From contig JAUIEX010000001.1 of the NCBI GenBank assembly GCA_030429725.1, forward strand, positions 3,684-67,683: DNA of 64,000 nucleotides. The letters are read 5' to 3'. Made by a program: the position numbers and the translations under genes. This document shows, one piece after another, positions 6,926 through 40,981 of the stretch. Numbering within the stretch: position 1 is the stretch's first letter; each line of letters begins with the position of its first letter. A model generated the notes under the pieces. It was not told where the DNA came from and did not search any database. It saw only the letters and a program-made list of their open reading frames with translations. Origin of the DNA: Alphaproteobacteria bacterium (GTDB lineage Bacteria; Pseudomonadota; Alphaproteobacteria; Rickettsiales; UBA8987).

Positions 6926-7018
6926 CACCGCACTTAACCGACATTAATGGTCTATGATTCTGGCGCTTTGCCGGATGATCTGGTAATGCTGGGCAAAATA
7001 CCTTATGTGGAAAAGATC

Positions 7019-8395: not shown

Positions 8396-8397
8396 GT

Positions 8398-10569: not shown

Positions 10570-10619
10570 CGGAGCATCCAGTGTTTTTATAAGGCAGAAC
10601 CGAGAATCCGAATCTCAGT

Positions 10620-11097: not shown

Positions 11098-11106
11098 GCG
11101 CGGTGG

Positions 11107-12099: not shown

Positions 12100-12175
12100 T
12101 ACAGCACCGAAATGTCACGTCTTGACGCAGGCAATGCTTATCCCCATCTCTTCCATGAAACTTAAAGGAAGCGCC

Positions 12176-12883: not shown

Positions 12884-13030
12884 ATGCTGCCATTGGCATT
12901 CAAACAAACACGCCATGCGCTTCTGCGCAAACATCCAAAGCGCTATGGCGCCGCGCTCATCATCAGCCTGCCTGCAACCTTCATCTGCCTGTTTATGATC
13001 CACCTCTTCATCGGCATGATGTCCGTTTAA
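12884..13030 (+). CDS. Possible 48-aa hydrophobic micro-protein, below the ORF-track length cut-off
   Basis: The ATG directly abuts the pirin stop (TAGATG). Sequence MLPLAFKQTRHALLRKHPKRYGAALIISLPATFICLFMIHLFIGMMSV has one clear TM helix. No further support. Confidence 0.3.
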   Translation: MLPLAFKQTRHALLRKHPKRYGAALIISLPATFICLFMIHLFIGMMSV

Positions 13031-13085
13031 GCGAAACGCAAAATCATCATTTTTGCTATATGCCCGTAGGATTGGGTGGCGTGCC

Positions 13086-13919
13086 CTACATATACCCGCT
13101 GGCGCGCAGCTTCTCAAAGGCGGCTTCGTCTTCATCCTTGCCCATCGGCCGGCCGGAGCGTTCCGAAGTTTTGGTGGTGCGCAGTTCTTCAATGATTTTA
13201 TCAATATCATCCGCCTCACTTGGCAGCGGCCAGGTGATGCCCTTTTCTCCCAGTGAGCGGAAGCGCATCATCTGCCCGCCAAAATCCCTGCCCTCAAATT
13301 CATCATACTTCTTGGCGTAATAGAGCGGCACAATCGGAATATCTTCCTGCTTGATGTAAAGCCACACATCCAGCTCCGTCCAGTGCAGCAGCGGGTGAAT
13401 GCGCACATGTGTTTCCGGCGGAAAATCCGTCATATACTGGTTCCAGAATTCCGGCGGCTGATCCTTCACGTCCCAGTTGCCTTCATTATCGCGCGGTGAA
13501 AAATAACGCTCTTTCGCGCGGGTGCCCTCTTCATCGCGGCGGATGCCGGTGATGATGCCGTTAAATTTATGCTCATCCAGCACGGCCTTCAGCCCCAGCG
13601 TTTTGCGCGCCGCCACCCGCGCCGCCCATGGCAGTTCGGCATCGGTTTCTTCAATCGGCGGGCACACCGGCCCGATAAAATTCACGCCCCATTCTTTGAC
13701 ATATTTATCCCGGAAGGCATAAACCTCATCAAATTCCAGCTCCGTATCGCAATGAATCATCGGAATCGGCATTTTGCCGAAGAACGCCTTGCGCATCAGA
13801 TACGCCATCACATTGGAATCTTTACCAAAACTCCACAACATGGCGATGTTATCAATTTTATTGAATGCCTCACGGAAAATATAAATCGATTCCGCTTCTA
13901 ATTTATCCAAATGGTTCAT
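13086..13919 (-). CDS. cysD: Sulfate adenylyltransferase subunit 2 (CysD, PAPS-reductase fold)
   Basis: LEAESIYIFRE, SFGKDS PP-loop, GIRRDEEGTRAKER, HPLLHWTELDVWLYI and a C-terminal TSERSGR, collinear with E. coli CysD. Confidence 0.85.
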   Translation of the reverse strand: MNHLDKLEAESIYIFREAFNKIDNIAMLWSFGKDSNVMAYLMRKAFFGKMPIPMIHCDTELEFDEVYAFRDKYVKEWGVNFIGPVCPPIEETDAELPWAARVAARKTLGLKAVLDEHKFNGIITGIRRDEEGTRAKERYFSPRDNEGNWDVKDQPPEFWNQYMTDFPPETHVRIHPLLHWTELDVWLYIKQEDIPIVPLYYAKKYDEFEGRDFGGQMMRFRSLGEKGITWPLPSEADDIDKIIEELRTTKTSERSGRPMGKDEDEAAFEKLRASGYM

Positions 13920-13967
13920 AGTAAAATACCTAATATCATTGCTATGCTCTTCAAATTTCAGAGGTTG

Positions 13968-14489
13968 TTACCAGAAGAAGGTTCTTAATGCTATATACAT
14001 TGCTAAATAACTTATGAAATTAATGCCAAAGAACAAACTCAACAGCTGCTTTGAACATATATTGTTAAAATAACTACCAAATTTTTCCTGATCAAACATG
14101 GCTGTACTAACAACGATAATAATTAACCACACATGCATCAGATGATATGCAACCCCAGAAATTCCTACTAAATTAATAAAAAAGTAAAAAAAGAGCAGAC
14201 TCAGACATCCCAGTGCAAGAACAGCTGAACCTACCATTACCGTGTTTATAACTATAGCTCTCAGATTTTCCTTGAACCTGTTCTCAGCATACAACCAAAA
14301 GAGAAAAAACACTCCCAAAAGTCGTAGAATCATCATAAGAACCACTGTGGCTAGAAAAAAAACGACTAGGAGAGTGAACCATAACATACCCTCTGAATTC
14401 CAAGAATCTAGGATACTGAGAGTAAGTATGTATAGTAGGCCAGCAAGAGGAATACAAAAAAGAATTAACACAGCTTGAAATGGTTTCAT
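13968..14489 (-). CDS. Hypothetical polytopic membrane protein on AT-rich DNA
   Basis: ~173 aa from the ATG at 14489, which lies 1 nt after the stop of the upstream TRIC gene. About 5 hydrophobic helices. ~35% G+C. No motif recognised. Confidence 0.55.
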   Translation of the reverse strand: MKPFQAVLILFCIPLAGLLYILTLSILDSWNSEGMLWFTLLVVFFLATVVLMMILRLLGVFFLFWLYAENRFKENLRAIVINTVMVGSAVLALGCLSLLFFYFFINLVGISGVAYHLMHVWLIIIVVSTAMFDQEKFGSYFNNICSKQLLSLFFGINFISYLAMYIALRTFFW

Positions 14490-14490
14490 T

Positions 14491-15135
14491 CTACTGACCA
14501 CCATCCAGATAAGGCGCCCCTTTGCGGATGCGTGGCAAATGCCAGCTGCGCCAATGCGCAATCAGGCGCAATGCCAATGCGGCAACAAAAAGCAGCCCCA
14601 GCCACAGCGGCGTGGTCACCTGAAAGTGATCCATCACGAACATCACCGCGCCGATAATCAGCGCCACACTGCCATAAAACCCGCTATCCAGCACCGCCGG
14701 CACTTCATTGAGCAACACATCCCGGATGATGCCGCCGCCGGTGGCTGTCAGCAATGCCAGCAATAAAACACCAAAAATGGAAAGCTCCGCCTGCAGCGCC
14801 ACCATGGCTCCGGTAATGGAAAATGCCACCAGCCCAACGGAATCACTAATCACAAAAAAGGCGCGGCGCTCCAACCCCGGATAGCGATGCAGCCGCAGCA
14901 GCAGCGCCCCCGCAACCACGCCAAGCACCAGATAAAAGGCCGAAGGGTTTTGCAACACACCGGGCACATGCCCCACCAGCACATCCCGCACAGCACCCCC
15001 GCCATTGGCTGTCAGCATCGCCACAATAAACAGCCCCATCCAGTCCAGTTCCTTGCGCACGCCCAGAAAAAAGCCCGATAAGGCGAAGGCCACGCTGCCA
15101 ATCAGTGATGCTAATTCAAACGGGGTCATCATCAA
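14491..15135 (-). CDS. TRIC/UPF0126 (YadS-like) cation channel family membrane protein
   Basis: Internal duplication with two glycine-rich motifs, ANGGGAVRDVLV and ATGGGIIRDVLL. 7 TM helices. Confidence 0.85.
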   Translation of the reverse strand: MMMTPFELASLIGSVAFALSGFFLGVRKELDWMGLFIVAMLTANGGGAVRDVLVGHVPGVLQNPSAFYLVLGVVAGALLLRLHRYPGLERRAFFVISDSVGLVAFSITGAMVALQAELSIFGVLLLALLTATGGGIIRDVLLNEVPAVLDSGFYGSVALIIGAVMFVMDHFQVTTPLWLGLLFVAALALRLIAHWRSWHLPRIRKGAPYLDGGQ

Positions 15136-22397: not shown

Positions 22398-22949
22398 TCA
22401 GGTGGTTGCGGCGCGATTCAGGTTATGCAACTTATGTAGATCCTGCACCAGTTGATTCCCAATTTCACCACCACTTCCCTTCATCTTTTGCTTAAAGACC
22501 AGCTGAAGCGCATTACTGTGAAGCTTAAGAATTTCTCTGCCACGCGGCTGATGAATATCTTCATCTGTCAGAAAAACATAGAATGAACGGGAAATTTCCG
22601 TGGCCAATGGATAATCATTCATCCCGGCGGAACCTTTAATATTCAGAATCGCGTCGCATAATTCAACATAATGCTCCGTATTTTTATCCAGCGCCTCAAC
22701 AAATAATTCGAATGATTTTTTAAAACGCTCAAGCTCCGGACGGATAATTTGATCGTAGCTTTCCTTCACCTTTTCGATATTTTTTTGCGCGGAATCAATT
22801 TCTTTCTTAGTAATCACGGAGCTTATTGAAACGCTGCCGATCTTCTCCTTAATCAAATTCTTTCCCTTCACGATAGTCGCGCCGGAAGAATGCGTTTTAG
22901 AATCTTCAACTAAATCAGCATCAATCATCAGTTCTTCTGGAGGTGTCAT
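22398..22949 (-). CDS. Hypothetical helical protein with an Hpt-like signature lacking the phospho-accepting His
   Basis: AILNIKGSAGMNDYPLATEI resembles the Hpt consensus H-x-x-KG-x-A-G, but Asn replaces the His. Start overlaps the upstream receiver gene's stop (TAATG). Confidence 0.5.
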   Translation of the reverse strand: MTPPEELMIDADLVEDSKTHSSGATIVKGKNLIKEKIGSVSISSVITKKEIDSAQKNIEKVKESYDQIIRPELERFKKSFELFVEALDKNTEHYVELCDAILNIKGSAGMNDYPLATEISRSFYVFLTDEDIHQPRGREILKLHSNALQLVFKQKMKGSGGEIGNQLVQDLHKLHNLNRAATT

Positions 22950-26413: not shown

Positions 26414-27271
26414 TTACTGACCACGCATATTTTCAAAATATTTCATAAAATCACTGTCCGGCGAAAGTACCATCCGCGTATCTTCACGCGCCATGGATTT
26501 ACGGTAAGCCTGCATGGAGCGATAAAAACTGAAAAAGGATGGATCGCGGGAGAAGGCTTCGGCAAAAATACGGCTTGCCGTTGCATCACCCTTACCCCGT
26601 AAAATCTGCGAATCGCGCTCCGCTTCCGCCAGAATGATCGTCCGTTCCTTGTCGGCCGTGGCCGTAATTAGCTGTGCTTTTTCAGCACCTTCTGCACGGA
26701 ACTGCTTGGCCTCTTCTTCCCGTTCCGTTTTCATACGCTCAAAAATACGGTTGGAGTTTTCCTCCGGGAAATCCGCCCGCATGATGCGCACATCCACCAC
26801 CTTCAGGCCGATATTCTTTGCCTTTTCGCGTACATTCTGACTGATCGTTTCCATCACGATGGCGCGCTCTTCCGTCAGCAATGTGCCGATGGAGGTGGAG
26901 CCCATCACCTCACGCAGTGACGCGTCAAGGAACGTATTCAAGCGCTGATTACCGCGCACTTCACTTTGAACGGATTGGTAATAAAGCAGCGGATCCTCAA
27001 TCTGATATTTCACAAAAGCATCAATAATCAGCGGCTTCTGGTCTTTATCAATGACCTCGTTCGGCTTGGCGTCCAAATCCAGCACGCGGGAATCATAAAT
27101 CAGCACATTCTGGATATAAGGCATCTTAAAATGCAGGCCGGGTTCTTTGACCACGCGCTGCGCCTCCCCAAATTGCAGCACCAATGCCTGCCGGCGCTGT
27201 TCAACAATAAAGATACTGCTTAAGGCGGAAATCACCGCCACCACTGCTGCAATAATTAACAATATTCGCAT
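26414..27271 (-). CDS. hflC: HflC, FtsH protease modulator (SPFH domain)
   Basis: N-terminal TM helix plus SPFH/band-7 domain, directly downstream of hflK. Confidence 0.9.
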   Translation of the reverse strand: MRILLIIAAVVAVISALSSIFIVEQRRQALVLQFGEAQRVVKEPGLHFKMPYIQNVLIYDSRVLDLDAKPNEVIDKDQKPLIIDAFVKYQIEDPLLYYQSVQSEVRGNQRLNTFLDASLREVMGSTSIGTLLTEERAIVMETISQNVREKAKNIGLKVVDVRIMRADFPEENSNRIFERMKTEREEEAKQFRAEGAEKAQLITATADKERTIILAEAERDSQILRGKGDATASRIFAEAFSRDPSFFSFYRSMQAYRKSMAREDTRMVLSPDSDFMKYFENMRGQ

Positions 27272-27284
27272 AATTTACACCTGT

Positions 27285-28439
27285 CTATTGGCCGCTATCG
27301 GCACGTTTATTCAGTTCATTCAATGGCAGATATGGCACCACACCACTGCCTGTGCCACGCTCCTGATCAATCAGAATCTTATCCATTCCCTGAAGGATTT
27401 CCTCCATGGTTTCCAGATAGATCCGCTGGCGGGTCACATCTTTTGCCTGGCGATATTCATCATAAACGGAGATGAAACGATCCGCCTCACCCTTGGCCTT
27501 GGCCGTCACCTGCTGGGCATAGGCTTCCGCATCCTGCAGCATCTGCGAAGCATTACCACGCGCACGCGGCAGAATATCATTGCGGTAGGCCTGCGCTTTA
27601 TTCACCGCGCTTTCCGCCTCGGTTTTGGCATTCTGCACATCAGTAAAAGCCGGGCGCACCGGAGATGGATATTTAATCTTTCCAAGCTCCAGCGCCTCAA
27701 TCTGCACACCGGTGCCATAACCGTCCAGCGTTGTCTGAAGCAGCTCACGCGCTTCCTGCTGAATCTGGAATTTACCGTCCGCAATGGCACGCGTAATCGG
27801 CGTGCGGCCGATCACTTCACGCATGGCACTTTCCGCCACGCTTTTTACCGTCTCTTCCGGGTTGCGCACATTAAACAGAAACGCCCGCGCATCACGAATC
27901 ACCCATTGCACCTCAAACGGCACATCCACAATATTTTCATCACCCGTCAGCATCTGACTTTCTTCCGGCACCTCGCGCACCACTGTACCACCGCGACCGG
28001 TTTGCGTGCGCTGGCCGATTTCAATACGGTTCACCACCGTCACCGGCACTTTTGCCAGGCTTTCAATGGGAGAAGGCAAGCGGTAATGAATCCCCGCTCC
28101 CGTCGTGCGATGAAATTCACCAAAGCGCATCACCACACCCTGTTCGCGTTCATCAATCACAAAAATTCCGGTGGAGAGCCATAATATCAGCACCAGAAAA
28201 ACCAGCCCGGCAATCGCGCGACCGCTCAGCCCATCATTGCCATTATCACCACCGCCGGCGCCGCCGCCAAACATGCCGTTAAGCTTCTCACGGCTTTTCC
28301 GCAGCATGGCATCCAAATCCGGCTGAGGCTGCTGTCCCCCTGCTTTTTTCTGATCAGAGGCGGGTTTTTTCTTTCCCGGATTTCCGCTTCCCCACGGATT
28401 CTGTTTGTCATCCCACGGCATAAATGCTCCTTTGCTCAT
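27285..28439 (-). CDS. hflK: HflK, FtsH protease modulator (SPFH domain)
   Basis: Gly/Pro/Gln-rich N-terminus (PWGSGNPGKKKP...), TM helix, SPFH domain. The hflK-hflC-htrA order is conserved. Confidence 0.9.
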   Translation of the reverse strand: MSKGAFMPWDDKQNPWGSGNPGKKKPASDQKKAGGQQPQPDLDAMLRKSREKLNGMFGGGAGGGDNGNDGLSGRAIAGLVFLVLILWLSTGIFVIDEREQGVVMRFGEFHRTTGAGIHYRLPSPIESLAKVPVTVVNRIEIGQRTQTGRGGTVVREVPEESQMLTGDENIVDVPFEVQWVIRDARAFLFNVRNPEETVKSVAESAMREVIGRTPITRAIADGKFQIQQEARELLQTTLDGYGTGVQIEALELGKIKYPSPVRPAFTDVQNAKTEAESAVNKAQAYRNDILPRARGNASQMLQDAEAYAQQVTAKAKGEADRFISVYDEYRQAKDVTRQRIYLETMEEILQGMDKILIDQERGTGSGVVPYLPLNELNKRADSGQ

Positions 28440-28482
28440 TGCAATATAGATAGCAAATGCCTATTTGCAAGGTGAGTTGACC

Positions 28483-29559
28483 ATGAAATTATTTAAAAAA
28501 CCTCTCTCGCAGCAGATCGTCGAACAGGCATTGGCGCCCGTGGTTTCCACGTCACGCATCCATGGTATTTCCATCACAAAAAATCAGGTCAGCCTGATAT
28601 TGGAGGCGGACACCGCCCTTTCGCAGGAAGAAAATGAAACACAACGCCGCCAGTGCATCAATCACTTGCTCAACCTCGGACAAATAAAAGAGGCAAAAAT
28701 TGCACTCACGGCTGCCAAAGGAAGCCTGCCGCAGGATAAACAAACTCCACCCGCCGGCAAAACCGCGCCCAAACCACCCACCCCCCGGCATGTGCCACAT
28801 ATCAGGCATGTGATTGCTGTGGGCAGCGGCAAAGGTGGCGTCGGCAAATCCACCGTCAGCGTCAATCTGGCAACGGCGCTGGCACGCAGCGGGCTTTCCG
28901 TCGGGCTGGCGGATGGCGATATTCTGGGGCCATCACTGGCACGCATGATGGGCATCACGCAGGAGCCGGAAGTTGAAAATCAGCAAATGATTCCGCCATC
29001 ACATCACGGGGTAAAATGCCTTTCCATGGGCGCTATTCTGGGTGAAAATGTGCCGGTTGTCTGGCGTGGACCCATGGTTACCAAAGCATTGCAGCAGCTT
29101 GTTTTCGGTGCGAAGTGGGGCAGCGAAACACAGCCGCTGGATGTGCTGGTGCTGGATTTACCCCCCGGCACGGGTGATATTCAACTGACCATGGTGCAGA
29201 ATATCACGTTATCGGGCGTGGTGCTGGTTTCCACCCCGCAGCAAGTGGCGCTGATGGATGTTAAAAAAGCCCATACCATGTTTAATAAAGTTGAGGTTCC
29301 CGTCCTTGGTATTGTGGAGAACATGGCCGGTATTCAGCAAGCGGATGGCAGTCTCCAGCCTGTTTTTGGCGCAAGCGGAAAAGAGGGAAATATCGCGCAT
29401 TATGCCGCAGAAACTCATATTCCTTTCCTGGGGTCACTGCCGCTGGATGGCGCACTCAGCACAGCCGGCGATGCTGGCAGCCCGCTCAAAGAAGGTCAGC
29501 TTACTGACATATTCGATGATATTGCCTTAGAGATCAGGCAAAAACTTGCACTGAACTAA
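28483..29559 (+). CDS. apbC: Mrp/ApbC-type Fe-S cluster carrier ATPase
   Basis: N-terminal DUF59-like region and deviant Walker A VGSGKGGVGKST. ATG at 28483. Confidence 0.88.
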   Translation: MKLFKKPLSQQIVEQALAPVVSTSRIHGISITKNQVSLILEADTALSQEENETQRRQCINHLLNLGQIKEAKIALTAAKGSLPQDKQTPPAGKTAPKPPTPRHVPHIRHVIAVGSGKGGVGKSTVSVNLATALARSGLSVGLADGDILGPSLARMMGITQEPEVENQQMIPPSHHGVKCLSMGAILGENVPVVWRGPMVTKALQQLVFGAKWGSETQPLDVLVLDLPPGTGDIQLTMVQNITLSGVVLVSTPQQVALMDVKKAHTMFNKVEVPVLGIVENMAGIQQADGSLQPVFGASGKEGNIAHYAAETHIPFLGSLPLDGALSTAGDAGSPLKEGQLTDIFDDIALEIRQKLALN

Positions 29560-29598
29560 TTAAATTTCTTACTTAAAGCAGTCCGCTGGGAAGCTGTC

Positions 29599-30495
29599 TT
29601 AAACCGCCTCTGCACCGGCCACAATTTCTGTCAGCTCGGTCGTAATTGCCGCCTGACGTGAACGGTTATATTGCAATGTCAGCTTCTGAATCATTTCCCC
29701 GGCATTGCGCGTGGCATTATCCATCGCCGTCATCCGCGCACCTTGTTCGGAAGCGGCATTTTCCAGCATTGCCTTGTAAATCTGCACCGCAACATTGCGC
29801 GGCAGCAAATCTTTGAGAATTTCCGCTTCGCCCGGTTCATATTCATACACCGCATCCAATCCGGAAGCCTGCGGCTGATCATCCTTGGCCGCATCCGCAT
29901 CCACTTCCAGCGGCACTAAAGACTGCACCTGCACTTCCTGCGTCAGCGCATTAACAAATTTATTATAAATGATGGAACAACCGTCAATTTTTTCGCCTTC
30001 AAACGCCGCAAGCACACGATCCGCCACTTCCTGCGCATGCTCATAGCTTGGCTGCTTTCCATCATACGCCACCAGACGCTCCGTCACGTAAGATGAAAAA
30101 TCCGCCTTCAGAAGATCATAGCCTTTTTTGCCCACCAGCAATATCTGCACCGCCTCGCCTTTCTTTTCCCGCTCAAGAATCTGCACCCGCGCCGCCTTGG
30201 CAATGGAGCCGTTGAAGCCACCGCACAACCCACGATCCGCCGTTGCCACAATCAGCAAATGGTTGGGCTTGGCCGATTCCCGCCCCACCAGAAGCTTCGG
30301 GGCATTATCGGCATTCACCTTGCCGGCAAGTGTGGCCAGCATCCGCGCCATCTTCTCGGCATAAGGCCGGCCGGCCTCGGCACGCTCCTGCGCGCGCTTC
30401 AGCTTGCTGGCCGCCACCATCTTCATCGCCTTGGTAATCTTCTGCGTGGATTTAACGCTACCAATCCGAATTTTCAGTTCTTTCAGACTTGCCAT
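29599..30495 (-). CDS. atpG: F1 ATP synthase gamma subunit
   Basis: MASLKELKIRIGSVKSTQKITKAMKMVAASKLKRAQ... and a conserved C-terminal helix. Confidence 0.93.
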   Translation of the reverse strand: MASLKELKIRIGSVKSTQKITKAMKMVAASKLKRAQERAEAGRPYAEKMARMLATLAGKVNADNAPKLLVGRESAKPNHLLIVATADRGLCGGFNGSIAKAARVQILEREKKGEAVQILLVGKKGYDLLKADFSSYVTERLVAYDGKQPSYEHAQEVADRVLAAFEGEKIDGCSIIYNKFVNALTQEVQVQSLVPLEVDADAAKDDQPQASGLDAVYEYEPGEAEILKDLLPRNVAVQIYKAMLENAASEQGARMTAMDNATRNAGEMIQKLTLQYNRSRQAAITTELTEIVAGAEAV

Positions 30496-30497
30496 TT

Positions 30498-31001
30498 CTA
30501 TATCCCAATACTTTTCTTTGACTGCAATTTTGTATTCAGCTTTCTTACTGAGGCCATAGCTTTTTGGTGATGTGTTTCAAGTTTTTCCTCAAGCTCATTA
30601 TAATCTTTAGCACTAATGCCAACAGGCGCATTCATTTGCTCCTCAAGAATCTTCTTGTTGTCTGGAAAAGTGACTCCTTTTTCACCAAGCGCCTTTTGGG
30701 CTTTTGCTTTTTCTAATGACTCAGACCTAACAAAATAAAAAAGGCTTGTTAGGTATTTTGCCTGATCCTCTGGTGAAATTTCTTCACTTGAAACATTTGG
30801 CTTAACGTAAATAACATACTCATCTTTATCGTTAAAATTGACCTCAACACCACCATTTTCAAGATCACTTTTTTTGCCAACAAAAACTTCCCAGGCATCA
30901 TCTCCAAAGTCTGGCATACCTTGCTCACGGTCACGCAACACCGCGTAATATTCGAGAAGATTTTCTAATACCTTAGCTTTTAAAGTGTTTTCATCTGCCA
31001 T
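30498..31001 (-). CDS. Hypothetical acidic soluble protein inserted between atpA and atpG
   Basis: 167-aa ORF at ~35% G+C. Its stop codon lies 2 nt before the atpG ATG. No motif recognised. Confidence 0.6.
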   Translation of the reverse strand: MADENTLKAKVLENLLEYYAVLRDREQGMPDFGDDAWEVFVGKKSDLENGGVEVNFNDKDEYVIYVKPNVSSEEISPEDQAKYLTSLFYFVRSESLEKAKAQKALGEKGVTFPDNKKILEEQMNAPVGISAKDYNELEEKLETHHQKAMASVRKLNTKLQSKKSIGI

Positions 31002-31039
31002 TTACAAACTCTAGCCCCTAGTCACTTGTCTCTGAAAAA

Positions 31040-32578
31040 CTACTTACTCGGCGCAAAAGCTTTGGTGAACGCTTCCAGAACTTCTTTGAGTGTCTTCTCG
31101 GAATCTTCGCTCAGCGCTTTTTCTTTACGAATCGCCGTCAGCAGCTTCTTCTGCTTGGCATGCAGCTCGGAAAGCAGCTCTTTCTCATAGCGGCTAACAT
31201 CCGCCGCCGGCACTTTGTCCAGATAGCCTTTGGTTCCGGCATAAAGCACACAGGTCTGCTCTTCCACTTTCAGCGGTGAGTATTGATCCTGCTTCAGCAA
31301 TTGCGTCAAACGCGCACCGCGATCCAGCAATTGCTTGGTGGAAGCGTCCAGATCGGAGCCAAACTGCGCGAATGCCTCCATCTCACGGAACTGTGCCAGC
31401 TCAAGCTTCACCGAACCAGCCACTTTCTTAATGGCCTTGGTTTGCGCCGCCGAACCCACACGGGATACGGAAAGCCCAACATTCACCGCCGGACGAATCC
31501 CCTTATAGAACAATTCCGTTTCAAGGAAAATCTGCCCATCGGTAATGGAAATCACGTTGGTTGGAATATAGGCGGAAACGTCACCCGCCTGTGTTTCAAT
31601 GATTGGCAGCGCGGTCAGTGAGCCGGCGCCCAGATCATCGGAAAGCTTGGCCGCACGCTCCAGCAAACGGGAGTGCAGATAGAACACATCTCCCGGATAA
31701 GCCTCACGCCCGGGAGGACGCCGCAGCAGCAGTGACATCTCACGATACGCCACCGCATGCTTGGAAAGATCATCATACACCACCAGCGCATGCTGGCTGT
31801 TATCACGGAAATATTCACCAATCGCACAGCCGGTATAGGGCGCTAAAAACTGAAGCGGCGCCGCTTCAGAAGCCGTAGCCGCCACCACCACGGAATAACG
31901 CAGCGCATCTTCTTCTTCCAGCTTCTTCACAATCTGCGCCACGGTGGAGCGCTTTTGCCCGATACAAACATAGACACAGTAAAGCTTTTCGTTTTCATCA
32001 TCGCCGTCATGGGCAGGTTTCTGATTCAGAATCGCATCAATTGCCACGGCGGTTTTACCCGTTTGACGGTCACCAATGATCAATTCCCGCTGGCCACGCC
32101 CAATCGGAATCAGCGCATCCACGGCTTTAATTCCGGTTTGCACCGGCTCATGCACGGATTTACGCGCGATAATGCCCGGCGCTTTGACTTCCACACGGGT
32201 CTTCTTCACATTTTTCAGCGGGCCTTTGCCATCAATCGGGTTTCCCAAACCGTCCACAACACGGCCAAGCATCCCCGGCCCCACCGGCACTTCCACAATA
32301 CGGCCGGTACGTTTGGCGGTGTCACCTTCCTTGATCTTATCGGAATTACCGAAAAGCACGACACCCACATTATCTTCTTCCAGATTCAGCGCCATGCCAA
32401 CCACGTCATTCGGGAAGGCAATCAGCTCCCCCGCCATCACGTCATCCAGACCGTAAATGGTGGCGATACCATCCCCCACGGACAGAATCTGCCCCGTCTC
32501 GGAAAGCTCCGCACCGGCATCAAAGCCCGCAACCTGCTTTTTAATAATATCGGTGATTTCTGAAGGACGAATGCTCAT
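31040..32578 (-). CDS. atpA: F1 ATP synthase alpha subunit
   Basis: Walker [10 protein letters not shown]. Collinear with AtpA along its full length. Confidence 0.96.
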
Positions 32579-32612
32579 AATGTACCCTTTTTACTCTTCA
32601 ATCTGTTTTTGG

Positions 32613-33176
32613 TTATGCAGTTTTTAATTCATTTTTAAGCCGATCCAAACGCCCCTTCACGGAAGCATCCAGCATCCGAGAGCCCGCACGGATAATTGCC
32701 CCGCCAAGAATGGCCGGGTCTTCTTCAGACTCAATCACCACGCCGCCTTTGGCCTGCTTGGCAAAGGCATTGCTAATTTTCTTCTTCGCAGCATCCGTCA
32801 GCGGATTAGCCGTCGTCACTTTGACTATCAACTCACCCTTATGCTCCGAAAGCTGGCGGGCAAACACCTCCGCCAAATGCGGCAGCAATGTCAGACGACG
32901 GTTATGCGCCACAACTTTTAACAACTTTGCCGTTTCACTATGCAGCTTCATTTTTTTAGACAAATCGCCCATCGCGGCCACGGATTCTTTCTCAGAGGCT
33001 AACAGCGCCAAACGCTGCAGCGCCGATGAATTTTTATAAATATCCGCCAACTGCTGAAGCTCATCCTTCACTTTCGTCAAGATTGCAACGGATGCTTTCT
33101 TCTCCGCCATCACGGCAAGCGTAGCCTTCGCATAACGCGAAGCTAACAAAAACATCTCTGCGGAGGATTGCGCCAT
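32613..33176 (-). CDS. atpH: F1 ATP synthase delta (OSCP) subunit
   Basis: 187 aa, in the OSCP position upstream of atpA. C-terminal GG.IIRAGSRMLDASV pattern. Confidence 0.85.
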   Translation of the reverse strand: MAQSSAEMFLLASRYAKATLAVMAEKKASVAILTKVKDELQQLADIYKNSSALQRLALLASEKESVAAMGDLSKKMKLHSETAKLLKVVAHNRRLTLLPHLAEVFARQLSEHKGELIVKVTTANPLTDAAKKKISNAFAKQAKGGVVIESEEDPAILGGAIIRAGSRMLDASVKGRLDRLKNELKTA

Positions 33177-33342
33177 GAAACTTCCTAAGCCTGTCGATTT
33201 AACGCGTGTGTACTACCATATGAACCCGGCAATGCAAACAGTTTTCGCCCCAATCCCGGCAATAAAATAACTCCGGCAGCCTTAGGCCGTGCGGACATAT
33301 AATTTAGTGTTTTGTTGCTTGTATAAATCGTTGATCCGCAAG

Positions 33343-33384
33343 AAAAAGCCTGAAGCCAATAGTGGTTCTATTAGCAAAGGCTTT
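33343..33384 (-). terminator. Candidate rho-independent terminator after the small membrane ORF
   Basis: On the minus strand: AAAGCCT...AGGCTTT stem with extra internal pairing, followed by TTTTCTT. The loop is long. Confidence 0.4.
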
Positions 33385-33404
33385 AAATTAAATGTCCACA
33401 AGGC

Positions 33405-33593
33405 CTATTTGGCGCTTTGCTTTCCGGAAGGTTGCGCAGAAACAGCCCATAAGATTAAAAAATAACAGATCGCGGCAAACAACATGATGGCAATACCCAC
33501 CAACGCCATCGGCGTGCCGCCAATCACACCGCCGCCAATGGCAAAAATAACCGTCATAAACACTAAAACAAATACCACCAAAGGACTCATCAT
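33405..33593 (-). CDS. Small (62-aa) two-TM membrane protein
   Basis: MMSPLVVFVLVFMTVIFAIGGGVIGG...LFAAICYFLILWAV. The internal ATG avoids overlap with the upstream dehydrogenase gene. Confidence 0.4.
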   Translation of the reverse strand: MMSPLVVFVLVFMTVIFAIGGGVIGGTPMALVGIAIMLFAAICYFLILWAVSAQPSGKQSAK

Positions 33594-33670
33594 AACCAAC
33601 ACTCCCGAAATTGTTGCAACGCGGTAAGGGTATAAACAGACTGGCAGATTCGTCAAGCCAAAGTGAAGTC

Positions 33671-34921
33671 TTACGGCCTGATCACCGCCTCGTGCCTCAA
33701 AAGCCCCCACGGGTCAATAATACCAATCCCACGCTCCGATGCCCGCCGGAGGATCACCTCCCGCTCCTCTTCATAAAGGCTATGATTGGTTGCAATAATC
33801 AGAAGGTCTGCCGCGTCCAGCACTTCCGCCAGATCCGTCTCAAAGGAAAGTACCGGAACACCGGAAACCACAAAATCATCAACAAACGGATCCGTTACCA
33901 GAATTCCCGCCGGACTGCATCGATCCAGCGCTCGCACCAGCTTAGGCACAAGCGAATCCCGCAAATCATCGGTATCACGCTTAAATGTCGCGCCTAAAAT
34001 CCCTACCGTCCTTCCTGCCACTGCACCAAATGCACGTTCCGCCTCATCAATCAATTGTTGCGGCAAACGCTCATGCACCCGCCAGGCAGAAAGAAGGAAA
34101 TTCGCCTCACGCCGCCCCTCCATCAACAAGCCGAAATCTTTACGCAAACACGTGCCCGCCGTCAAACCCGGTCGATCGGCAATCGGCCGGGCATAGCCAT
34201 AATTTGCCAGCCGGAAAACCTCAAACGGGTTTTGGTCATGCTCCATCGCAATCGTTGCCAGCTGATTGGCAATGGCAAATTCCAGATAGCGCCCGGTATT
34301 GGCGAAAAGCTTTGCCAGCTCGGCTGCGCCCACATTACCGGACAGTATCTCCATGCCCAGCGGCGCAAACACCGCTTCAGCGCGGCGGAGACTTTCACCA
34401 TCATCCGCGCCGATAATTTGTGGCAAACTACGAATTTCCTCATAGGCTTTGCCTTCCACCAGTCTTTCAGGGCAAAAGGCCAAATAAAAATCCTGACCAC
34501 ATTGCCAGCCGGTTTTTTGCTCGATATAATTCCTCAAACGCACCGTGACACCCGGCGCCAATGTGCTGCGCAGAATCAACAAATCCTGCCGCTTAAATGT
34601 CTTTAGCAAACTGTCAATGACCCCGATAATCGCCGTTAAGTCCGCCTCCAGATGCTGCATCACCGGCGTTCCCACCGTTACGATATAGTTATCCACCGCA
34701 CCTTTAAGTGCCGCCACATCCTCAACAATCTTCAACCGCCCGGCGGCCACCAGCCCGTCATAGCCCGGCTCATGAAACGGCATTATTTTCTTATCGTTAA
34801 TGGCACGGCGCACTGCCGGGTTGATGTCCACTCCATGCACATCATGACCCGACTCCAACAAAGAAAGCGCCAATGGCAACCCAACCCTTCCGGCTCCAAT
34901 TACGGCAACTGATGTCATCAA
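33671..34921 (-). CDS. Nucleotide-sugar 6-dehydrogenase (UDP-glucose/GDP-mannose dehydrogenase family)
   Basis: Rossmann motif VIGAGRVGLPLA and the catalytic Cys context LTAGTCLRKDF. Three-domain length of 416 aa. Confidence 0.85.
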   Translation of the reverse strand: MMTSVAVIGAGRVGLPLALSLLESGHDVHGVDINPAVRRAINDKKIMPFHEPGYDGLVAAGRLKIVEDVAALKGAVDNYIVTVGTPVMQHLEADLTAIIGVIDSLLKTFKRQDLLILRSTLAPGVTVRLRNYIEQKTGWQCGQDFYLAFCPERLVEGKAYEEIRSLPQIIGADDGESLRRAEAVFAPLGMEILSGNVGAAELAKLFANTGRYLEFAIANQLATIAMEHDQNPFEVFRLANYGYARPIADRPGLTAGTCLRKDFGLLMEGRREANFLLSAWRVHERLPQQLIDEAERAFGAVAGRTVGILGATFKRDTDDLRDSLVPKLVRALDRCSPAGILVTDPFVDDFVVSGVPVLSFETDLAEVLDAADLLIIATNHSLYEEEREVILRRASERGIGIIDPWGLLRHEAVIRP

Positions 34922-35223: not shown

Positions 35224-37323
35224 ATGAGTGTAAATTTTGACGCTGCTTATTACTTAGCACAAAACCCGGACGTTGCTGCCGCAGGCATTGACGCATTAGC
35301 GCACTACCAACAATTTGGTTTTGCCGAAGGCCGTGACCCGAACGCATTTTTTGATACATCATATTATCTGGCGCAAAACCCGGATGTGGCCGCTGCGGGC
35401 ATTGACCCTCTGGCACACTTTAACGCCAATGGCGCAACCGAAGGCCGTGACCCGAACCCCTTCTTTGATACATCTTATTACCTTTCTCAAAATGGTGACG
35501 TTGCCGCTGCCGGCGTGAACGCACTGCAACACTACATTGAAAACGGCGCTACCGAAGGCCGCACCGTCAGTGCTTTCTTCGATGTAACCTATTATCTGGC
35601 ACAAAATGCCGATGTGGCCGCTGCCGGTGTAAACCCACTGCTCCACTTCATTCAGAATGGTGCCGCCGAAGGCCGTGATCCAAATGCAAGCTTCGACATG
35701 AGCGCTTATCTGGCCGCCGACGTGGGCGCTGCTGCTGCCGTAGCCGCGGGCAACACGGCCGGCATCATCAGCGAGCTGGCAACGGATGCCGCTGCACGCG
35801 TGAATGCATTAATCGCTGCCGGAACTTCAGCCAGTGATGCACAAGCGGCTATTAATGCAAATGCCGCAGCAACCAACACAACATCTTCCGGTGGCTCCGG
35901 CGGAACGGCACAAACCGGCAAGGTTGGCGCTACTGTTGCTACCGGCAACACCACGCTGACACTGGCCGGCGCTTCCGATGGCAACGTTGTGGTTGACCTG
36001 ACCAAAGGTACGGGCGCTACGGACGTTGTTGTGGATAATAGTGAAGATGTTATCCGCACCGGCGCCGGAACATACACCGCCGGTACAACCATTAACGTGA
36101 ACGCCGCCACCATGACTAATGGCTCATTGACGGTGACAACGAACGGCACCGGCACACCAACCATCACAACAGGTATTACCGCCACCACTGTGAGCGGCAC
36201 GGCAACTGCCGCCAACGTGGATGCAGAAGTGCTGGCCGACGATACTGCACTGACACTTTCCGGCGCCACAAACTACACCGTGACCAATATGGAAGGTAAT
36301 GTTGTTGCAACATCTCTGACAGGCACATTGGCCGTGACCACAGACGATGCTACGGATGACGGTATCTCCATTACCACCGGTTCCGGCGCAACCAGCCTGA
36401 CAGCAAATAATGCTTCCGACACGGTAACCGTTGTTGCAACAGCACTGGCCGATGGCACGGCACTGACAGTGGCCGCCGCTTCGGCTTCTGATCTGACCAT
36501 CACCGGCCTGCAAGGTGATCTGGTAGCAACCAATCTTTCCGGTGATTTGAGCGTAACTTCCGTTGCCGTTGCAACGCAGTCTATCGCCACGGGTTCAGGC
36601 ACCAACACCCTGACTGCCGACGCGCTGACCGATGGTCAGGTGCTGACAGTGACCGGTGATGATGCCGCAACGGTTACATTGGTTGCCGGTGACCTGGCAG
36701 CCGGTGCTTCCACCGGCGACCTGACCGTTACAGCCACCACGGGTACCAACGTGATTACAACCGGTGACGGTTCCGATACCATCACAGGTGGCACGGGCGA
36801 CGATAACATCACTGCCGGTAACGGTGTTGATACCATTCAAATCGCCTTTGGTGGTGAAGGTGAAGATACCTTCACAAGCTTCACCGTGGGTGCCGGTGCC
36901 AACCGTGATATCATTGATTTCACCGGTGCAACCGATGTTGCCAACGTTTCTACGGCTGGTGGCTTTGTTCTGCAAGCTAACGCGGATAACGCCAACACGG
37001 CGGCCACGAACGGCTTAACCATCATTGACAATAATGATGGCGCCAACACCAGCGCCACCGACCTGACGGTTGGTAACGTTGCGACTTATCTGGCAGATAC
37101 GGATGCCGGCGGCGCTAATACGGATGCGATTATTTATGAAAACATCAACTCCATCATTTACTTGATTGTTTCCGACGGTACGGATTCTGCCTTGTTCAAG
37201 GCGGATGCAACCGGTAACGGTGACACGGTGATTGACTCCAACGAGCTGACACTGATCGGCACTTTTGCCGGCATTACCGACGCCGGCACGATCACGGCAG
37301 ATAACTTCGCAGACTTTGCGTAA
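35224..37323 (+). CDS. Large secreted repetitive protein: N-terminal 38-aa tandem repeats, T/A/G-rich beta-helix-like core, RTX-like GGxGxD segment
   Basis: GGAGG ribosome-binding site. Four and a half repeats of FDxxYYLAQNPDVAAAGxxxLxHxxxxGxxEGRDPNxF. TGDGSDTITGGTGDDNITAGNGVDTI at ~36760-36840. Strong terminator follows. Confidence 0.8.
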   Translation: MSVNFDAAYYLAQNPDVAAAGIDALAHYQQFGFAEGRDPNAFFDTSYYLAQNPDVAAAGIDPLAHFNANGATEGRDPNPFFDTSYYLSQNGDVAAAGVNALQHYIENGATEGRTVSAFFDVTYYLAQNADVAAAGVNPLLHFIQNGAAEGRDPNASFDMSAYLAADVGAAAAVAAGNTAGIISELATDAAARVNALIAAGTSASDAQAAINANAAATNTTSSGGSGGTAQTGKVGATVATGNTTLTLAGASDGNVVVDLTKGTGATDVVVDNSEDVIRTGAGTYTAGTTINVNAATMTNGSLTVTTNGTGTPTITTGITATTVSGTATAANVDAEVLADDTALTLSGATNYTVTNMEGNVVATSLTGTLAVTTDDATDDGISITTGSGATSLTANNASDTVTVVATALADGTALTVAAASASDLTITGLQGDLVATNLSGDLSVTSVAVATQSIATGSGTNTLTADALTDGQVLTVTGDDAATVTLVAGDLAAGASTGDLTVTATTGTNVITTGDGSDTITGGTGDDNITAGNGVDTIQIAFGGEGEDTFTSFTVGAGANRDIIDFTGATDVANVSTAGGFVLQANADNANTAATNGLTIIDNNDGANTSATDLTVGNVATYLADTDAGGANTDAIIYENINSIIYLIVSDGTDSALFKADATGNGDTVIDSNELTLIGTFAGITDAGTITADNFADFA
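35236..35691 (+). repeat. Four tandem 114-nt (38-aa) coding repeats, with a degenerate fifth unit after them
   Basis: Units begin FDAAYYLAQNPDVAAAGIDAL, FDTSYYLAQNPDVAAAGIDPL, FDTSYYLSQNGDVAAAGVNAL and FDVTYYLAQNADVAAAGVNPL. Confidence 0.9.
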
Positions 37324-40114: not shown

Positions 40115-40981
40115 TTACCATTCAAATGCTAAGCTGCAGGTACGCTGCCGGCCACCATTGACTGACATAGAATAGGTTACAGGGTTCGCAGTATTGCCAA
40201 GATTGTCATAACAAGTTGACGTGCTTGCAGCGGCAGCCGTTGAGCCTGTAGCCGTACCCACCCATGCAAGTGGATAGCTTGCCGGCGCACCATTAAGCAG
40301 CCGTTGAGCTGTGATTGTACCTGTCAGCGGGTTCCCATCATCCATTTTTCTGTCGATGCCATACGCCGCTTCAACCGGCACATTATTTTGCTGGGTAAAG
40401 TTACCTAAACCAATATTATAGCCACTTAAATTAGAAGTAAGCATACCGGTCAGGCCAAAATATGGAATGCCGGCTTTATTCGTATCACTGGCACTAAAAA
40501 CAATAATATGCATGTCTGACCCTAGCCTGCTTTGGGGAAAAATCTCATGGATATTGCTGCTATCGTAATTGCCGACAGGTGCAGTACAGCTTACAGAATT
40601 TAATGTATCTCTAATATAACCAGCCACAAATAAATCGTTCCAAAACATGGTATTCTCACCGTTTTGAACGTTGCCACGATTATTTGTCGCATAACCACCC
40701 CAATTACCTTCAATAAAACCATCACCATTACCGGTTCCGGGATAAGAACCCCTTGCTTTAAAGCCGAAATCTTGAGCGTTACTGCAATCACCCGGCAGGC
40801 AGTCATATTTTGTTTGAAAACTTTGCGTTGCAGTATGATATTGCTGAATCTGAGAGACTTGGTCAGTTATTCTAGCAGCAAAAATCAGACTTTGGCCAAC
40901 GATGACCCCTGAAATAATCAAGCCCAAAATCACTAAAACAATTGATAACTCAACCAATGTAAAAGCATTTTTATTTTTCAT
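40115..40981 (-). CDS. Type IV pilin / T2SS pseudopilin-like protein (prepilin-type N-terminal methylation domain)
   Basis: MKNKNAFTLVELSIVLVILGLIISG has a class III signal-like N-terminus with Glu at +5. Cys pairs in the C-terminal half. ~40% G+C. Confidence 0.75.
   Translation of the reverse strand: MKNKNAFTLVELSIVLVILGLIISGVIVGQSLIFAARITDQVSQIQQYHTATQSFQTKYDCLPGDCSNAQDFGFKARGSYPGTGNGDGFIEGNWGGYATNNRGNVQNGENTMFWNDLFVAGYIRDTLNSVSCTAPVGNYDSSNIHEIFPQSRLGSDMHIIVFSASDTNKAGIPYFGLTGMLTSNLSGYNIGLGNFTQQNNVPVEAAYGIDRKMDDGNPLTGTITAQRLLNGAPASYPLAWVGTATGSTAAAASTSTCYDNLGNTANPVTYSMSVNGGRQRTCSLAFEW

Follow-up and report, generated by a model that had tools for sequence, protein, structure and literature searches.

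The F1 ATP synthase locus in the analysed stretch of alphaproteobacterial DNA (64,000 nucleotides, hereafter the window) is best explained as a genuine but rearranged F1 cluster that has undergone two independent changes. We consider it fairly probable that the genes for the alpha and gamma subunits are separated by a passenger gene, which is coupled to atpG and draws on the atp promoter, and that a lineage-specific break has separated the gamma gene from the beta gene.

Organisation of the F1 locus

The open reading frames and their Pfam matches give the minus-strand order atpH, atpA, a frame of 167 codons (ORF167) and atpG, followed by a convergent mrp/apbC gene 3' of atpG (Table 1), in agreement with the initial annotation. 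AtpA possesses the three alpha/beta domains (E 1e-82) and the P-loop GDRQTGKT, and its residues 1-509 are 68-75% identical to those of relatives. Residues 1-298 of AtpG align with all relatives, at identities of up to 63%. The probable start of mrp/apbC is the ATG at 28483, with which a Logan gene call of 358 aa agrees.

A ribosome-binding site, AGGAAG, was read 7-12 nt 5' of the atpH ATG. A scan of the non-coding stretch upstream of atpH called no consensus sigma-70-like site, and the operon promoter is placed there presumptively. Beyond this stretch lie a Pfam-less membrane ORF of 101 aa and a gene of the UDP-glucose-dehydrogenase family; Pfam searches upstream of atpH detected no Fo genes (no ATP-synt_B, ATP-synt_C or ATP-synt_A match).

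Table 1. Features of the F1 locus, with positions in the window
Feature	Position	Strand	Remarks
Upstream non-coding stretch, 228 nt	33177..33404	-	Presumed site of the operon promoter, 5' of atpH
atpH, F1 delta (OSCP) subunit, 187 aa	32613..33176	-	PF00213, E 9.1e-37, full-length
atpA, F1 alpha subunit, 512 aa, intact	31040..32578	-	PF02874 + PF00006 + PF00306
atpA-ORF167 spacer, 38 nt	31002..31039	-	From the atpA stop (TAG) to the ORF167 ATG
ORF167, 167 aa	30498..31001	-	Strict orphan, foreign base composition
ORF167-atpG stop-start junction TAG-AA-ATG	30493..30500	-	Termination-reinitiation geometry
atpG, F1 gamma subunit, 298 aa, intact	29599..30495	-	PF00231, E 6e-103
atpG-mrp spacer, 39 nt	29560..29598	.	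Between convergent stops; rearrangement breakpoint, usual atpD position
mrp/apbC-type Fe-S carrier ATPase	28465..29559	+	PF10609, E 1.2e-81; convergent with atpG

The orphan gene between atpA and atpG

ORF167 appears to be a genuine gene, though one of foreign base composition. Its G+C content is 37.5%, compared to 50-54% in the neighbouring genes and a window mean of 0.518; the low G+C noted initially is thus real, with a measured value above the estimate of about 35%. The dip, to a GC of 0.37-0.40, extends exactly from the atpA stop to the atpG start. ORF167 has a GC3 of 0.31, compared to 0.55-0.67 in the neighbouring genes, and the lowest CAI-like value (0.505) among 14 genes. Short and atypical in both composition and codon usage, it has the hallmarks of a passenger gene. 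The encoded protein of 19 kDa is acidic, as first described (pI 5.0), small and soluble, with many K and E residues but no cysteine, and its AF2 model is largely helical.

Searches of 5.77e9 protein clusters and, with the full HMMER read, of 1.84e9 protein representatives returned only ORF167 itself. Four DNA collections (viral, metagenome, phage, plasmid) gave no match, and no similar sequence was present in the fetched locus of any relative. The initial impression that ORF167 contains no recognisable motif also withstood these searches: no Pfam family matched at E up to 0.01, and only CBM-like_CFAP184 and DUF1828 appeared, at chance level, at E up to 5; PHROG gave no accepted match (best E 0.015, to a family of unknown function), PADLOC 0 families and the PDB entries no match. 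ORF167 is hence a strict orphan. It matched no toxin, antitoxin, immunity or defence family and is a single gene without a partner. No fold was matched by Foldseek either, with best E values of 0.96 for the whole protein and 0.42 for its N-terminal 108 aa. The V/A-ATPase stalk chains that Foldseek proposed (E about 1-6, TM about 0.2) were judged to be noise, because the underlying model consists of long helices predicted with low confidence.

An AT-rich remnant of a mobile element with a chance open frame, or a decaying gene, could account for the missing homologues, for the low confidence of the predicted structure (pLDDT 47 for the whole protein) and for the result that no RNA run holds the sequence of the ORF167 locus. 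We nevertheless regard a non-functional frame as unlikely. At 37.5% GC, a stop-free run of 167 codons arose in only 7 of 20000 shuffles of the 542-nt insert when all six frames were considered (p about 3.5e-4), and GC1, GC2 and GC3 (0.54, 0.28 and 0.31) display a coding-type periodicity that lies about 5 sd from flat. The N-terminal 108 residues are modelled with moderate confidence as an alpha/beta unit (pLDDT 66, pTM 0.55). Moreover, an in-frame stop immediately precedes the ATG of the frame, whose end lies 2 nt from the atpG start; translation of the frame would hence be needed to bring ribosomes to atpG.

Both ends of the insert carry translation signals. The low-GC spacer behind atpA includes a Shine-Dalgarno-like AGGGG as well as the in-frame TAA that abuts the ORF167 ATG. 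This AGGGG, with an anti-SD duplex of -5.6 kcal/mol (window median -3.0), at least equals the corresponding elements of atpH, atpA and atpG. At the 3' end, the initial annotation had located the ORF167 stop 2 nt before the atpG ATG and had concluded that any ribosome-binding site of atpG must lie within ORF167. Both statements proved correct, as the junction reads TAG-AA-ATG and a GGGA (duplex energy -4.0 kcal/mol) is situated 8-11 nt 5' of the atpG start, inside ORF167. A stop near the next start and a Shine-Dalgarno element inside the upstream gene are the geometry of a coupled gene pair, which suggests that ORF167 and atpG are co-transcribed and translationally coupled.

The insert contains no promoter-like or terminator-like site on the minus strand. 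As ORF167 thus has neither promoter nor terminator of its own, the atpH promoter would transcribe it within an atpH-atpA-ORF167-atpG message. Ribosomes that terminate on ORF167 may then restart on atpG, because the stop lies so close to the ATG and the sole Shine-Dalgarno-like element falls into the last codons of ORF167. Such reinitiation would keep the synthesis of the gamma subunit going and could make the insertion tolerable. Tight packing and absent signals of its own are also expected of a recruited operon member.

The foreign composition points to a horizontal origin of ORF167, which may have been acquired from an AT-rich, unsampled donor and would have replaced the short atpA-atpG spacer. 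An AT-rich composition is reported to be typical of orphans (Daubin and Ochman 2004), and such genes usually derive from phages or other mobile DNA. No match in the phage, plasmid or viral collections indicated a transfer vehicle or donor. As to insertion scars, there were no meaningful flanking repeats, no integrase and, in the window, no tRNA.

Cargo in the F1 operons of relatives and the break behind atpG

Across AtpA and AtpG, the closest relatives are at most 72% identical to the window. In a neighbour-joining (NJ) tree of both proteins, the window groups with the loci L088, L084, L091, L089, L090, L082 and L004, and this group adjoins MAGs labelled 'Rickettsiales'. The order of atpH, atpA and atpG is as in all 80 related loci (80/80). 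The atpA-atpG interval, in contrast to a usual median of about 0-40 nt without any gene, measures 544 nt in the window and accommodates ORF167; it exceeds 200 nt in only 3 other loci of about 90. Considering all F1 spacers of about 90 loci, lengths above 200 nt were confined to the window's group (L025, L082, L084, L085, L089, L090), and insertions frequently lengthen the atpG-atpD spacer within the clade. ORF167, whose conservation between atpA and atpG had been proposed as a check, was absent from all relatives examined.

Instead, six of the nine relatives that were closely examined carry low-GC, same-strand cargo of unrelated genes in their F1 spacers; L115 was added beyond these nine and was found via its toxin-antitoxin pair. 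The cargo comprises DUF4258+DUF2283 pairs, MNT+HEPN, BrnA, 23S_rRNA_IVP, a Rap1a immunity protein, a methyltransferase, membrane proteins and orphans, and thereby includes toxin-antitoxin-like pairs and IVP/Avd-like proteins. Its members are mutually unrelated, except for the DUF4258+DUF2283 pair (L025, L084, L115) and the IVP genes (L082, L084). In L025, L084 and L085, all inserted genes but one have a GC of 0.33-0.46, and the atp genes 0.50-0.53. The arrangement in L084, atpH-atpA-[DUF4258][DUF2283]-atpG-[MTase][IVP]-atpD-[BrnA][214 aa][124 aa][IVP]-atpC, illustrates this habit, and up to nine extra genes were counted in the F1 operon of one relative, apparently the only such operon in view.

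Three types of cargo occupy the atpA-atpG site itself: a toxin-antitoxin-like pair and two unrelated orphans, as the 135-aa gene of L089 is another strict orphan and differs from ORF167. In 34 of 35 metagenome loci the DUF4258+DUF2283 pair stands alone as a module, and in L115 it lies within the atp operon. Its presence inside the atp operons of L115, L025 and L084 therefore implies that mobile modules do land in the atpA-atpG spacer. In the window and the relatives, all genes inserted just 5' of atpG end 0-2 nt from the atpG start; in L089, TAA is directly followed by GTG, and L084 and L025 show an overlap of 1 nt.

The cargo-laden operons (L084, L025, L115, L082, L085, L089, L090) thus belong to the same clade as the window, and four of them (L025, L084, L089, L115) bear cargo in the very spacer that houses ORF167. 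Like ORF167, this cargo is co-directional, of lower GC than the atp genes where these are at about 50%, and joined to atpG by a stop-start junction. ORF167 differs from it in sharing no sequence with any of those genes, and the cargo-laden relatives keep atpD and atpC downstream, whereas the window does not. Of the two roles considered at the outset, that of a hitch-hiker gains support from the lack of conservation and from the unrelated genes in the relatives' spacer, and that of an accessory or regulator found no positive evidence. By analogy, ORF167 is most likely of the same kind as the relatives' cargo (addiction, immunity or defence-type genes and orphans) and not a component of the ATP synthase.

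A lineage-specific ATP synthase accessory appears quite unlikely. Such a protein could be a gamma/alpha assembly factor or an inhibitor functionally similar to the zeta subunit, the epsilon C-terminal domain, IF1 or AtpTheta, and translational coupling would tie its synthesis to that of gamma, perhaps to make up for the separate location of the beta and epsilon genes. The shared strand, the missing signals of its own, the stop-start junction with atpG and a Shine-Dalgarno-like element at least equal to those of the atp genes are consistent with this role, as are the small, soluble, acidic and largely helical product and its occurrence in the sole genome that also lost the atpG-atpD linkage. 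However, ORF167 is foreign in composition and not conserved even in the closest relatives, and it has no Pfam match and hence is not DUF1476/zeta; the stalk-chain matches, being noise, lend no weight. What fills the atpA-atpG spacer of relatives, a toxin-antitoxin-like pair or an unrelated orphan, argues for cargo rather than subunits, as do the immunity, IVP and methyltransferase genes in their other F1 spacers. A broader version of this reading is very unlikely: ORF167 would be a hitherto unseen, lineage-restricted F1 partner, made in fixed ratio with gamma and recruited in the single lineage where beta and epsilon became unlinked from it, and the F1 spacers of the clade would serve as a dedicated landing site at which small foreign genes are captured and exchanged.

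The second change concerns the 3' end of the cluster. That the beta and epsilon genes are gone from their usual place, as first reported, was confirmed by comparison: atpD follows atpG in 88 of 88 loci with both genes in view, the nearest relatives all retain atpD-atpC, and among 88 alphaproteobacterial loci the gamma/beta break was seen in this genome only. A tblastn search of the 64-kb window with the relatives' AtpD and AtpC proteins matched only the atpA paralogue; no beta or epsilon gene thus lies within about 30 kb of the cluster in either direction. The stops of atpG and mrp face each other at a distance of 39 nt, and the sequence between them contains no terminator-like hairpin and no atpD remnant (fold z-score -1.2). 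In the relatives, neither mrp nor hflK occurs within 10 kb of atpG. We infer that atpD-atpC is encoded elsewhere in the genome, since any F1 needs beta and epsilon; both genes may have been split from atpG by a rearrangement with its breakpoint in the atpG-atpD spacer.

The cluster could instead be a redundant partial copy, a remnant that was free to gain an insert and lose its 3' half while a complete atpHAGDC resides elsewhere. A spare copy could more easily put up with both an insertion and a truncation, and the 64 kb of genome in view leave room for a second copy. We consider this very improbable, as none of the three genes is truncated, their motifs are conserved and they align with the relatives from end to end. 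Furthermore, the CAI-like values of atpG (the highest in the window) and atpA are among the most host-like, the window branches as vertical descent predicts and without extreme branch length, and relatives tolerate up to nine extra genes in an apparently sole F1 operon.

An assembly artefact, that is, a chimeric join at 29560-29600 (a flaw considered beforehand) or at either border of the low-GC insert, is extremely unlikely, although the source is a metagenome-assembled contig of about 8.5x depth: a separately assembled Logan contig of 4971 nt (a per-run assembly made with a different assembler, whose two supporting runs look like the same data) spans 27122-32092 with 0 differences and even depth, the insert and atpG-mrp junctions are both reproduced in this single contig without joints, and no repeat at either junction could have misled the assembler.

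Significance and comparison with known systems

Few bacterial gene clusters are as conserved and as strongly expressed as the F1 operon, which is therefore an unexpected home for foreign genes. Our data indicate that unrelated genes can ride as passengers in an essential operon, as many as nine of them in one relative, and suggest the rule that inserts before atpG end 0-2 nt from its start codon. The clade could serve as a natural test bed for how translational coupling and a strong constitutive promoter allow insertions to be tolerated in essential operons. An F1-binding ORF167 would add a new regulator to the bacterial class that gave rise to mitochondria, but the analysis offers no hint of such binding. 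Most likely, the locus reflects a harmless passenger gene and a genome rearrangement, with a cargo habit common to the nearest relatives, and not a new part of the ATP synthase.

In 89.1% of Alphaproteobacteria, the epsilon, beta, gamma, alpha and delta genes form one unit and b, c and a another (PMC5709465). The window shares with this canonical atpHAGDC arrangement, found for example in Rhodobacter capsulatus, the order and orientation of the delta, alpha and gamma genes, the orthologous proteins (identity to relatives reaching about 75% for alpha and 63% for gamma) and the unattached Fo genes. It differs by the 167-aa gene between alpha and gamma, and by a unit that stops after gamma and faces a convergent mrp. 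Cyanobacteria and Bacteroidetes possess split clusters, in which gamma-alpha-delta-b-c-a and epsilon-beta are separate units (PMC5709465). Their breakpoint between gamma and beta is the same as in the window, and they demonstrate that F1 can be built from two separately transcribed units. The locus thus represents an alphaproteobacterial case of a gamma/beta split that is otherwise typical of these phyla. There, however, the arrangement goes back to the ancestor of the phylum and Fo genes are part of the gamma unit; the unit in the window is without Fo genes.

For an 'extra' ATP synthase protein in this class, the family that first suggests itself is the zeta subunit (DUF1476), a small, soluble F1-binding protein restricted to Alphaproteobacteria that inhibits the F1 ATPase and is encoded outside both atp operons (PMC9317440). 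ORF167 has no Pfam match and no similarity to zeta, and was rejected as a member of this family.

An extra frame inside an alphaproteobacterial F1 operon has a reported precedent. Tybulewicz, Falk and Walker reportedly described in 1984 a frame 'X' between gamma and beta in the atp operon of Rhodobacter blasticus (Rhodopseudomonas blastica). This frame would resemble ORF167 in being an unidentified extra ORF within such an operon, and would differ in its position in the gamma-beta spacer of an otherwise complete operon.

Among new operon pairs, orphans beside native genes are enriched, and the native promoter drives their expression (Price et al. 2006, PMC1480536). ORF167 resembles these pairs as an orphan without relatives that lies directly 3' of a native gene and lacks its own promoter. 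Unlike them, it is internal to an old, essential and highly conserved operon rather than at an operon's end, and lies 5' of an essential gene, atpG, so that the insertion must preserve downstream translation.

Architecture and composition of the interrupted operon

Open reading frame calls and Pfam domains confirmed the order atpH-atpA-ORF-atpG that the initial annotation had read from the sequence (table below). The foreign frame between atpA and atpG, which encode the alpha and gamma subunits, is called ORF167 here. It is separated from the atpA stop by a 38-nt spacer, with an in-frame TAA directly preceding its ATG, and at its other end the 2-nt gap to atpG was found as described, the junction reading TAG-AA-ATG. 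Only 39 nt lie between the stops of atpG and the convergent mrp/apbC, where a terminator was looked for and none was found; hflK, hflC and a DegP-type protease follow beyond mrp/apbC on the minus strand. A small glycine-rich, two-helix membrane ORF (33405-33710, minus strand) of uncertain start is co-oriented with atpH and separated from it by 228 nt on the upstream side. This ORF and the 3' end of a UDP-glucose-dehydrogenase-family gene overlap, and it matches no Pfam family, neither ATP-synt_C nor AtpI.

Features of the window and extra genes in the F1 operons of related loci (L handles)
Locus	Feature	Position	Strand	Remarks
Window	atpH	32613-33176	-	OSCP, E 9e-37
Window	atpA	31040-32578	-	three alpha/beta-family domains, E 1e-82
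Window	ORF167	30498-31001	-	167 codons, no Pfam family
Window	atpG	29599-30495	-	PF00231, E 6e-103
Window	mrp/apbC	28465-29559	convergent with atpG	PF10609, E 1e-81
Window	low-GC ORF	1055-1747	+	GC 0.30; start 7 nt after thiC stop
Window	low-GC ORF	13968-14561	-	GC ~0.34; between Gly_transporter-family and PAPS-reductase-family genes
Window	low-GC ORF	22398-22949	-	GC 0.41; start overlaps response-regulator stop
L084	F1 operon	5135-14075		nine extra genes; atpH-atpA-(DUF4258)(DUF2283)-atpG-(methyltransferase)(23S_rRNA_IVP)-atpD-(BrnA antitoxin)(214 aa)(124 aa)(23S_rRNA_IVP)-atpC
L025	F1 operon	7182-13678		DUF4258/DUF2283 pair before atpG; (Rap1a immunity)(nucleotidyltransferase-like)(HEPN-like) before atpD
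L082	extra genes			23S_rRNA_IVP before atpD; 152-aa gene before atpC
L085	extra gene			181-aa membrane protein after atpG
L089	extra gene	7593-8000		135 aa, between atpA and atpG
L089	extra gene			91 aa, after atpG
L090	extra gene			93-aa membrane protein after atpG
L115	F1 operon	2487-8032		DUF4258/DUF2283 pair between atpA and atpG

The foreign composition that had been claimed for ORF167 was upheld. G+C content drops from 0.54-0.58 to 0.37-0.40 exactly from the atpA stop to the atpG start, and ORF167 has an overall GC of 0.375 (GC1/GC2/GC3 = 0.54/0.28/0.31). Its GC3 compares with 0.55-0.67 in 13 other window genes, and ORF167 ranks lowest of 14 genes in host-like codon usage (0.505 versus 0.58-0.77). 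ORF167 shows the three-base periodicity typical of coding DNA in an AT-rich genome, and an open frame of its length occurred in 7 of 20000 shuffles of the insert. On the strength of this periodicity and the rare frame length, ORF167 is a real or recently real gene that is compositionally foreign. The alternative of a non-functional open frame is unlikely, as both the codon-position signal and the ORF-length statistic speak against it. The encoded protein (19 kDa, pI 5.0) has a high content of K and E and contains no cysteine, signal peptide or membrane segment.

At least three further low-GC ORFs without a Pfam family stand close against core genes of the same orientation in the window, so that this genome seems to hold a class of such ORFs to which ORF167 belongs. 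A 288-aa protein that carries a prepilin-type N-terminal methylation motif (40115-40981, minus strand) is likewise atypical in composition, with a GC3 of only 0.36. A 699-aa ORF without Pfam family (35224-37323, plus strand) begins with four copies of a ~40-aa repeat (YYLAQNPDVAAAG...EGRDPN.FFD) and continues as a long T/A/G/D-rich region, like a secreted or adhesin-like repeat protein. In the ThiC ORF (23-1048, plus strand), the Pfam match stops at residue 213 of the 341 visible, leaving a low-complexity, acidic and proline-rich C-terminal tail of ~128 aa that is unusual for ThiC.

ORF167 retrieved only itself, both from 5.77e9 proteins (cluster representatives) in a word-indexed phmmer search and from 1.84e9 representatives in an exhaustive one, in which HMMER compared each in full. 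Searches against Pfam (E up to 5), PHROGs, PADLOC and PDB sequences gave chance-level matches only. Degenerate-pattern scans of viral contigs and JGI metagenome contigs and tblastn against phage and plasmid records yielded nothing, and tblastn detected no relative in the window or across all 126 related loci (1.7 Mb). Because homologues are absent, structure prediction was weak: AF2 reached a pLDDT of 47 for the whole protein, and a pLDDT of 66 with a pTM of 0.55 for the N-terminal 108 aa, modelled as a helix, a small sheet and two helices. The best Foldseek E values against PDB were 0.96 (whole model) and 0.42 (N-terminal 108 aa), with TM <=0.35; matches to V/A-ATPase stalks were dismissed, as they arise from long helices. 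We regard these predicted models and their matches as uninformative and draw no functional conclusion from them. As to insertion scars, ORF167 carries no terminal direct or inverted repeats, and a search for tRNA and Rfam families found none. G/C-rich, REP-like palindromes of the CCCTCTCCC...GGGAGAGGG type occur in the atpA-atpG spacers of L082 (7892-8000) and L089 (7412-7592); as scars they are absent from the window, which shows no excess of the motif.

Cargo genes and the stop-start junction before atpG

Extra genes within the F1 operon are common in the window's group, and none were seen outside it. Six of the nine relatives that we examined closely carry such cargo (L084, L025, L082, L085, L089 and L090), and three carry none (L088, L091 and L004); a search with the DUF4258/DUF2283 pair added a seventh case, L115. 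In L025, the Rap1a label is a Pfam match, while the nucleotidyltransferase-like and HEPN-like labels are putative, read from the sequences themselves. All cargo genes of the relatives lie on the atp strand. In L025, L084 and L085, where atp GC is ~50%, cargo GC is 0.33-0.46 versus 0.50-0.53 in the atp genes, with the 124-aa gene of L084 (0.50) as the one exception. The F1 operons of this lineage are unusually permissive to such insertions.

The DUF4258 and DUF2283 genes occurred as a pair in 35 of 35 metagenome loci, 34 of them outside atp operons, and form a self-contained two-gene module. As this module is free-standing elsewhere, yet occupies the atpA-atpG spacer of three genomes (L025, L084 and L115), mobile modules do reach this spacer and can be retained in it. 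Conservation of ORF167 at this position, a possibility raised in the initial annotation, was not observed: four relatives (L025, L084, L089 and L115) have other genes there, the related loci yielded no ORF167 homologue, and none of their cargo genes resembles it. The 135-aa gene at the same site in L089, whose atp genes have ~41% GC, is a strict orphan with only a self-hit in 5.8 billion proteins.

In the window, L089, L084 and L025, the gene directly before atpG ends at the atpG start codon. The TAA of the 135-aa gene in L089 is followed directly by the GTG start of atpG, and stop and start overlap by 1 nt in L084 and L025. The insert in the window holds no promoter-like or terminator-like site on the minus strand, and ORF167 would be transcribed from a putative strong, constitutive promoter upstream of atpH. 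RNA sequencing runs were searched for the sequence, and none contained it. For the SD-like AGGGG of ORF167, the duplex energy is -5.6 kcal/mol (window median -3.0). The sole SD-like element of atpG (GGGA, -4.0 kcal/mol) lies within the last codons of ORF167, so that gamma synthesis most likely relies on ribosomes that have translated ORF167 and start again 2 nt further on. Such termination-restart coupling would account for the tolerance of an insertion upstream of an essential gene, and for the tight junction before atpG that is common to all such insertions in the clade.

Two readings of the extra ORF had been put forward, a hitch-hiker and an ATP synthase accessory or regulator. An accessory or inhibitor would be compatible with the geometry of the locus, but is quite improbable, as ORF167 lacks any conservation and any DUF1476/zeta match, is foreign in composition, and occupies a site with heterogeneous cargo in relatives. 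ORF167 has no assignable function, and nothing marks it as an ATP synthase component. The hitch-hiker reading is the more likely one, favoured by the foreign GC and the relatives' varied cargo. Judged by this context, the ORF167 protein probably belongs to the same class as that cargo, i.e. addiction, immunity or defence genes, or phage-like orphans. Orphans often enter genomes beside native genes, with native promoters driving their expression (PMC1480536), a general finding that a passenger role of ORF167 would fit.

Absence of atpD and atpC downstream of atpG

The initial annotation had also noted that the beta and epsilon genes, atpD and atpC, are missing downstream of atpG. This proved correct: tblastn with the relatives' AtpD and AtpC against the 64 kb gave only the expected weak paralogous match to atpA, and no beta subunit was found among the other large ORFs of the window. 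Since atpG is followed by atpD in every one of the 88 comparison loci that show both genes, the loss of atpD, with atpC, from this position is specific to the window's lineage; the order atpH-atpA-atpG-atpD held in 80 of 80 genome loci. As F1 cannot do without beta and epsilon, atpD and atpC would have to be encoded elsewhere in the genome. Contigs of the sequencing run that aligned to a relative's atpD-atpC numbered 186, from many species, and were not assignable to the window genome. The split after atpG would be best explained by a rearrangement with its breakpoint in the atpG-atpD spacer. Insertions have enlarged this spacer in six relatives.

The window organism is poorly sampled, its closest AtpG being 63% identical in a large protein set and 60% in species-representative genomes, and its highest identity for concatenated AtpA+AtpG being 72%. 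In a neighbour-joining tree of AtpA+AtpG, it groups with metagenomic loci (L088, L084, L091, L089, L090, L082 and L004), adjoining the Rickettsiales-labelled MAGs L003, L025, L048 and L054 and apart from Ferrovibrio, Sneathiella, Pseudovibrio and Pelagibacter. Neither flank of the window operon is syntenic with any relative, and none has mrp, hflK or ugd near atpG. That the F1 genes here are a spare partial copy is conceivable with only 64 kb in view, but very unlikely, since all are intact, their codon usage is host-like and they fall where expected in the phylogeny.

A 4971-nt Logan contig, from a separate per-run assembly of a public run, encodes identical ORF167 and AtpG proteins; it has the same order (atpA, ORF167, atpG, mrp, hflK) and spans window positions 27122-32092. 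In a comparison with window positions 27000-34000, two public runs from different studies and years gave contigs that agree exactly in length (4971, 8017, 3850 and 1266 nt) and almost exactly in depth. Because of these identical lengths, the runs are probably the same data deposited twice rather than independent samples, and were counted as a single confirmation by a different assembler. A misassembly, which the initial annotation named as a refuting condition at 29560-29600, is hardly credible, as the Logan contig crosses this region with no mismatches, indels or joints at an even depth of ~8.5x, and neither junction contains a repeat that could mislead an assembler.

Comparison with known systems

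The locus is an F1 operon variant that probably arose from two ordinary processes, orphan insertion and rearrangement. The most interesting result is comparative: the spacers of an essential operon repeatedly hold heterogeneous cargo on the operon's own strand, and the stop-start junction before atpG is conserved. We found no published accounts of foreign genes or cargo in atp operons, including those of the window's clade. Tybulewicz, Falk and Walker (1984) reportedly described an unidentified reading frame between gamma and beta in the F1 operon of Rhodopseudomonas blastica. The gene of the alphaproteobacterial zeta inhibitor is not part of either atp operon (PMC9317440), and ORF167 does not belong to the zeta family (DUF1476).

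The epsilon, beta, gamma, alpha and delta genes form one unit in 89.1% of Alphaproteobacteria, whereas epsilon-beta is separated from gamma-alpha-delta-b-c-a in 87.8% of Bacteroidetes and 89.7% of Cyanobacteria (PMC5709465). The break in the window falls at the same position (gamma/beta) as the cyanobacterial split. However, Fo genes are attached in Cyanobacteria and none are attached in the window, which thus does not represent the cyanobacterial arrangement.
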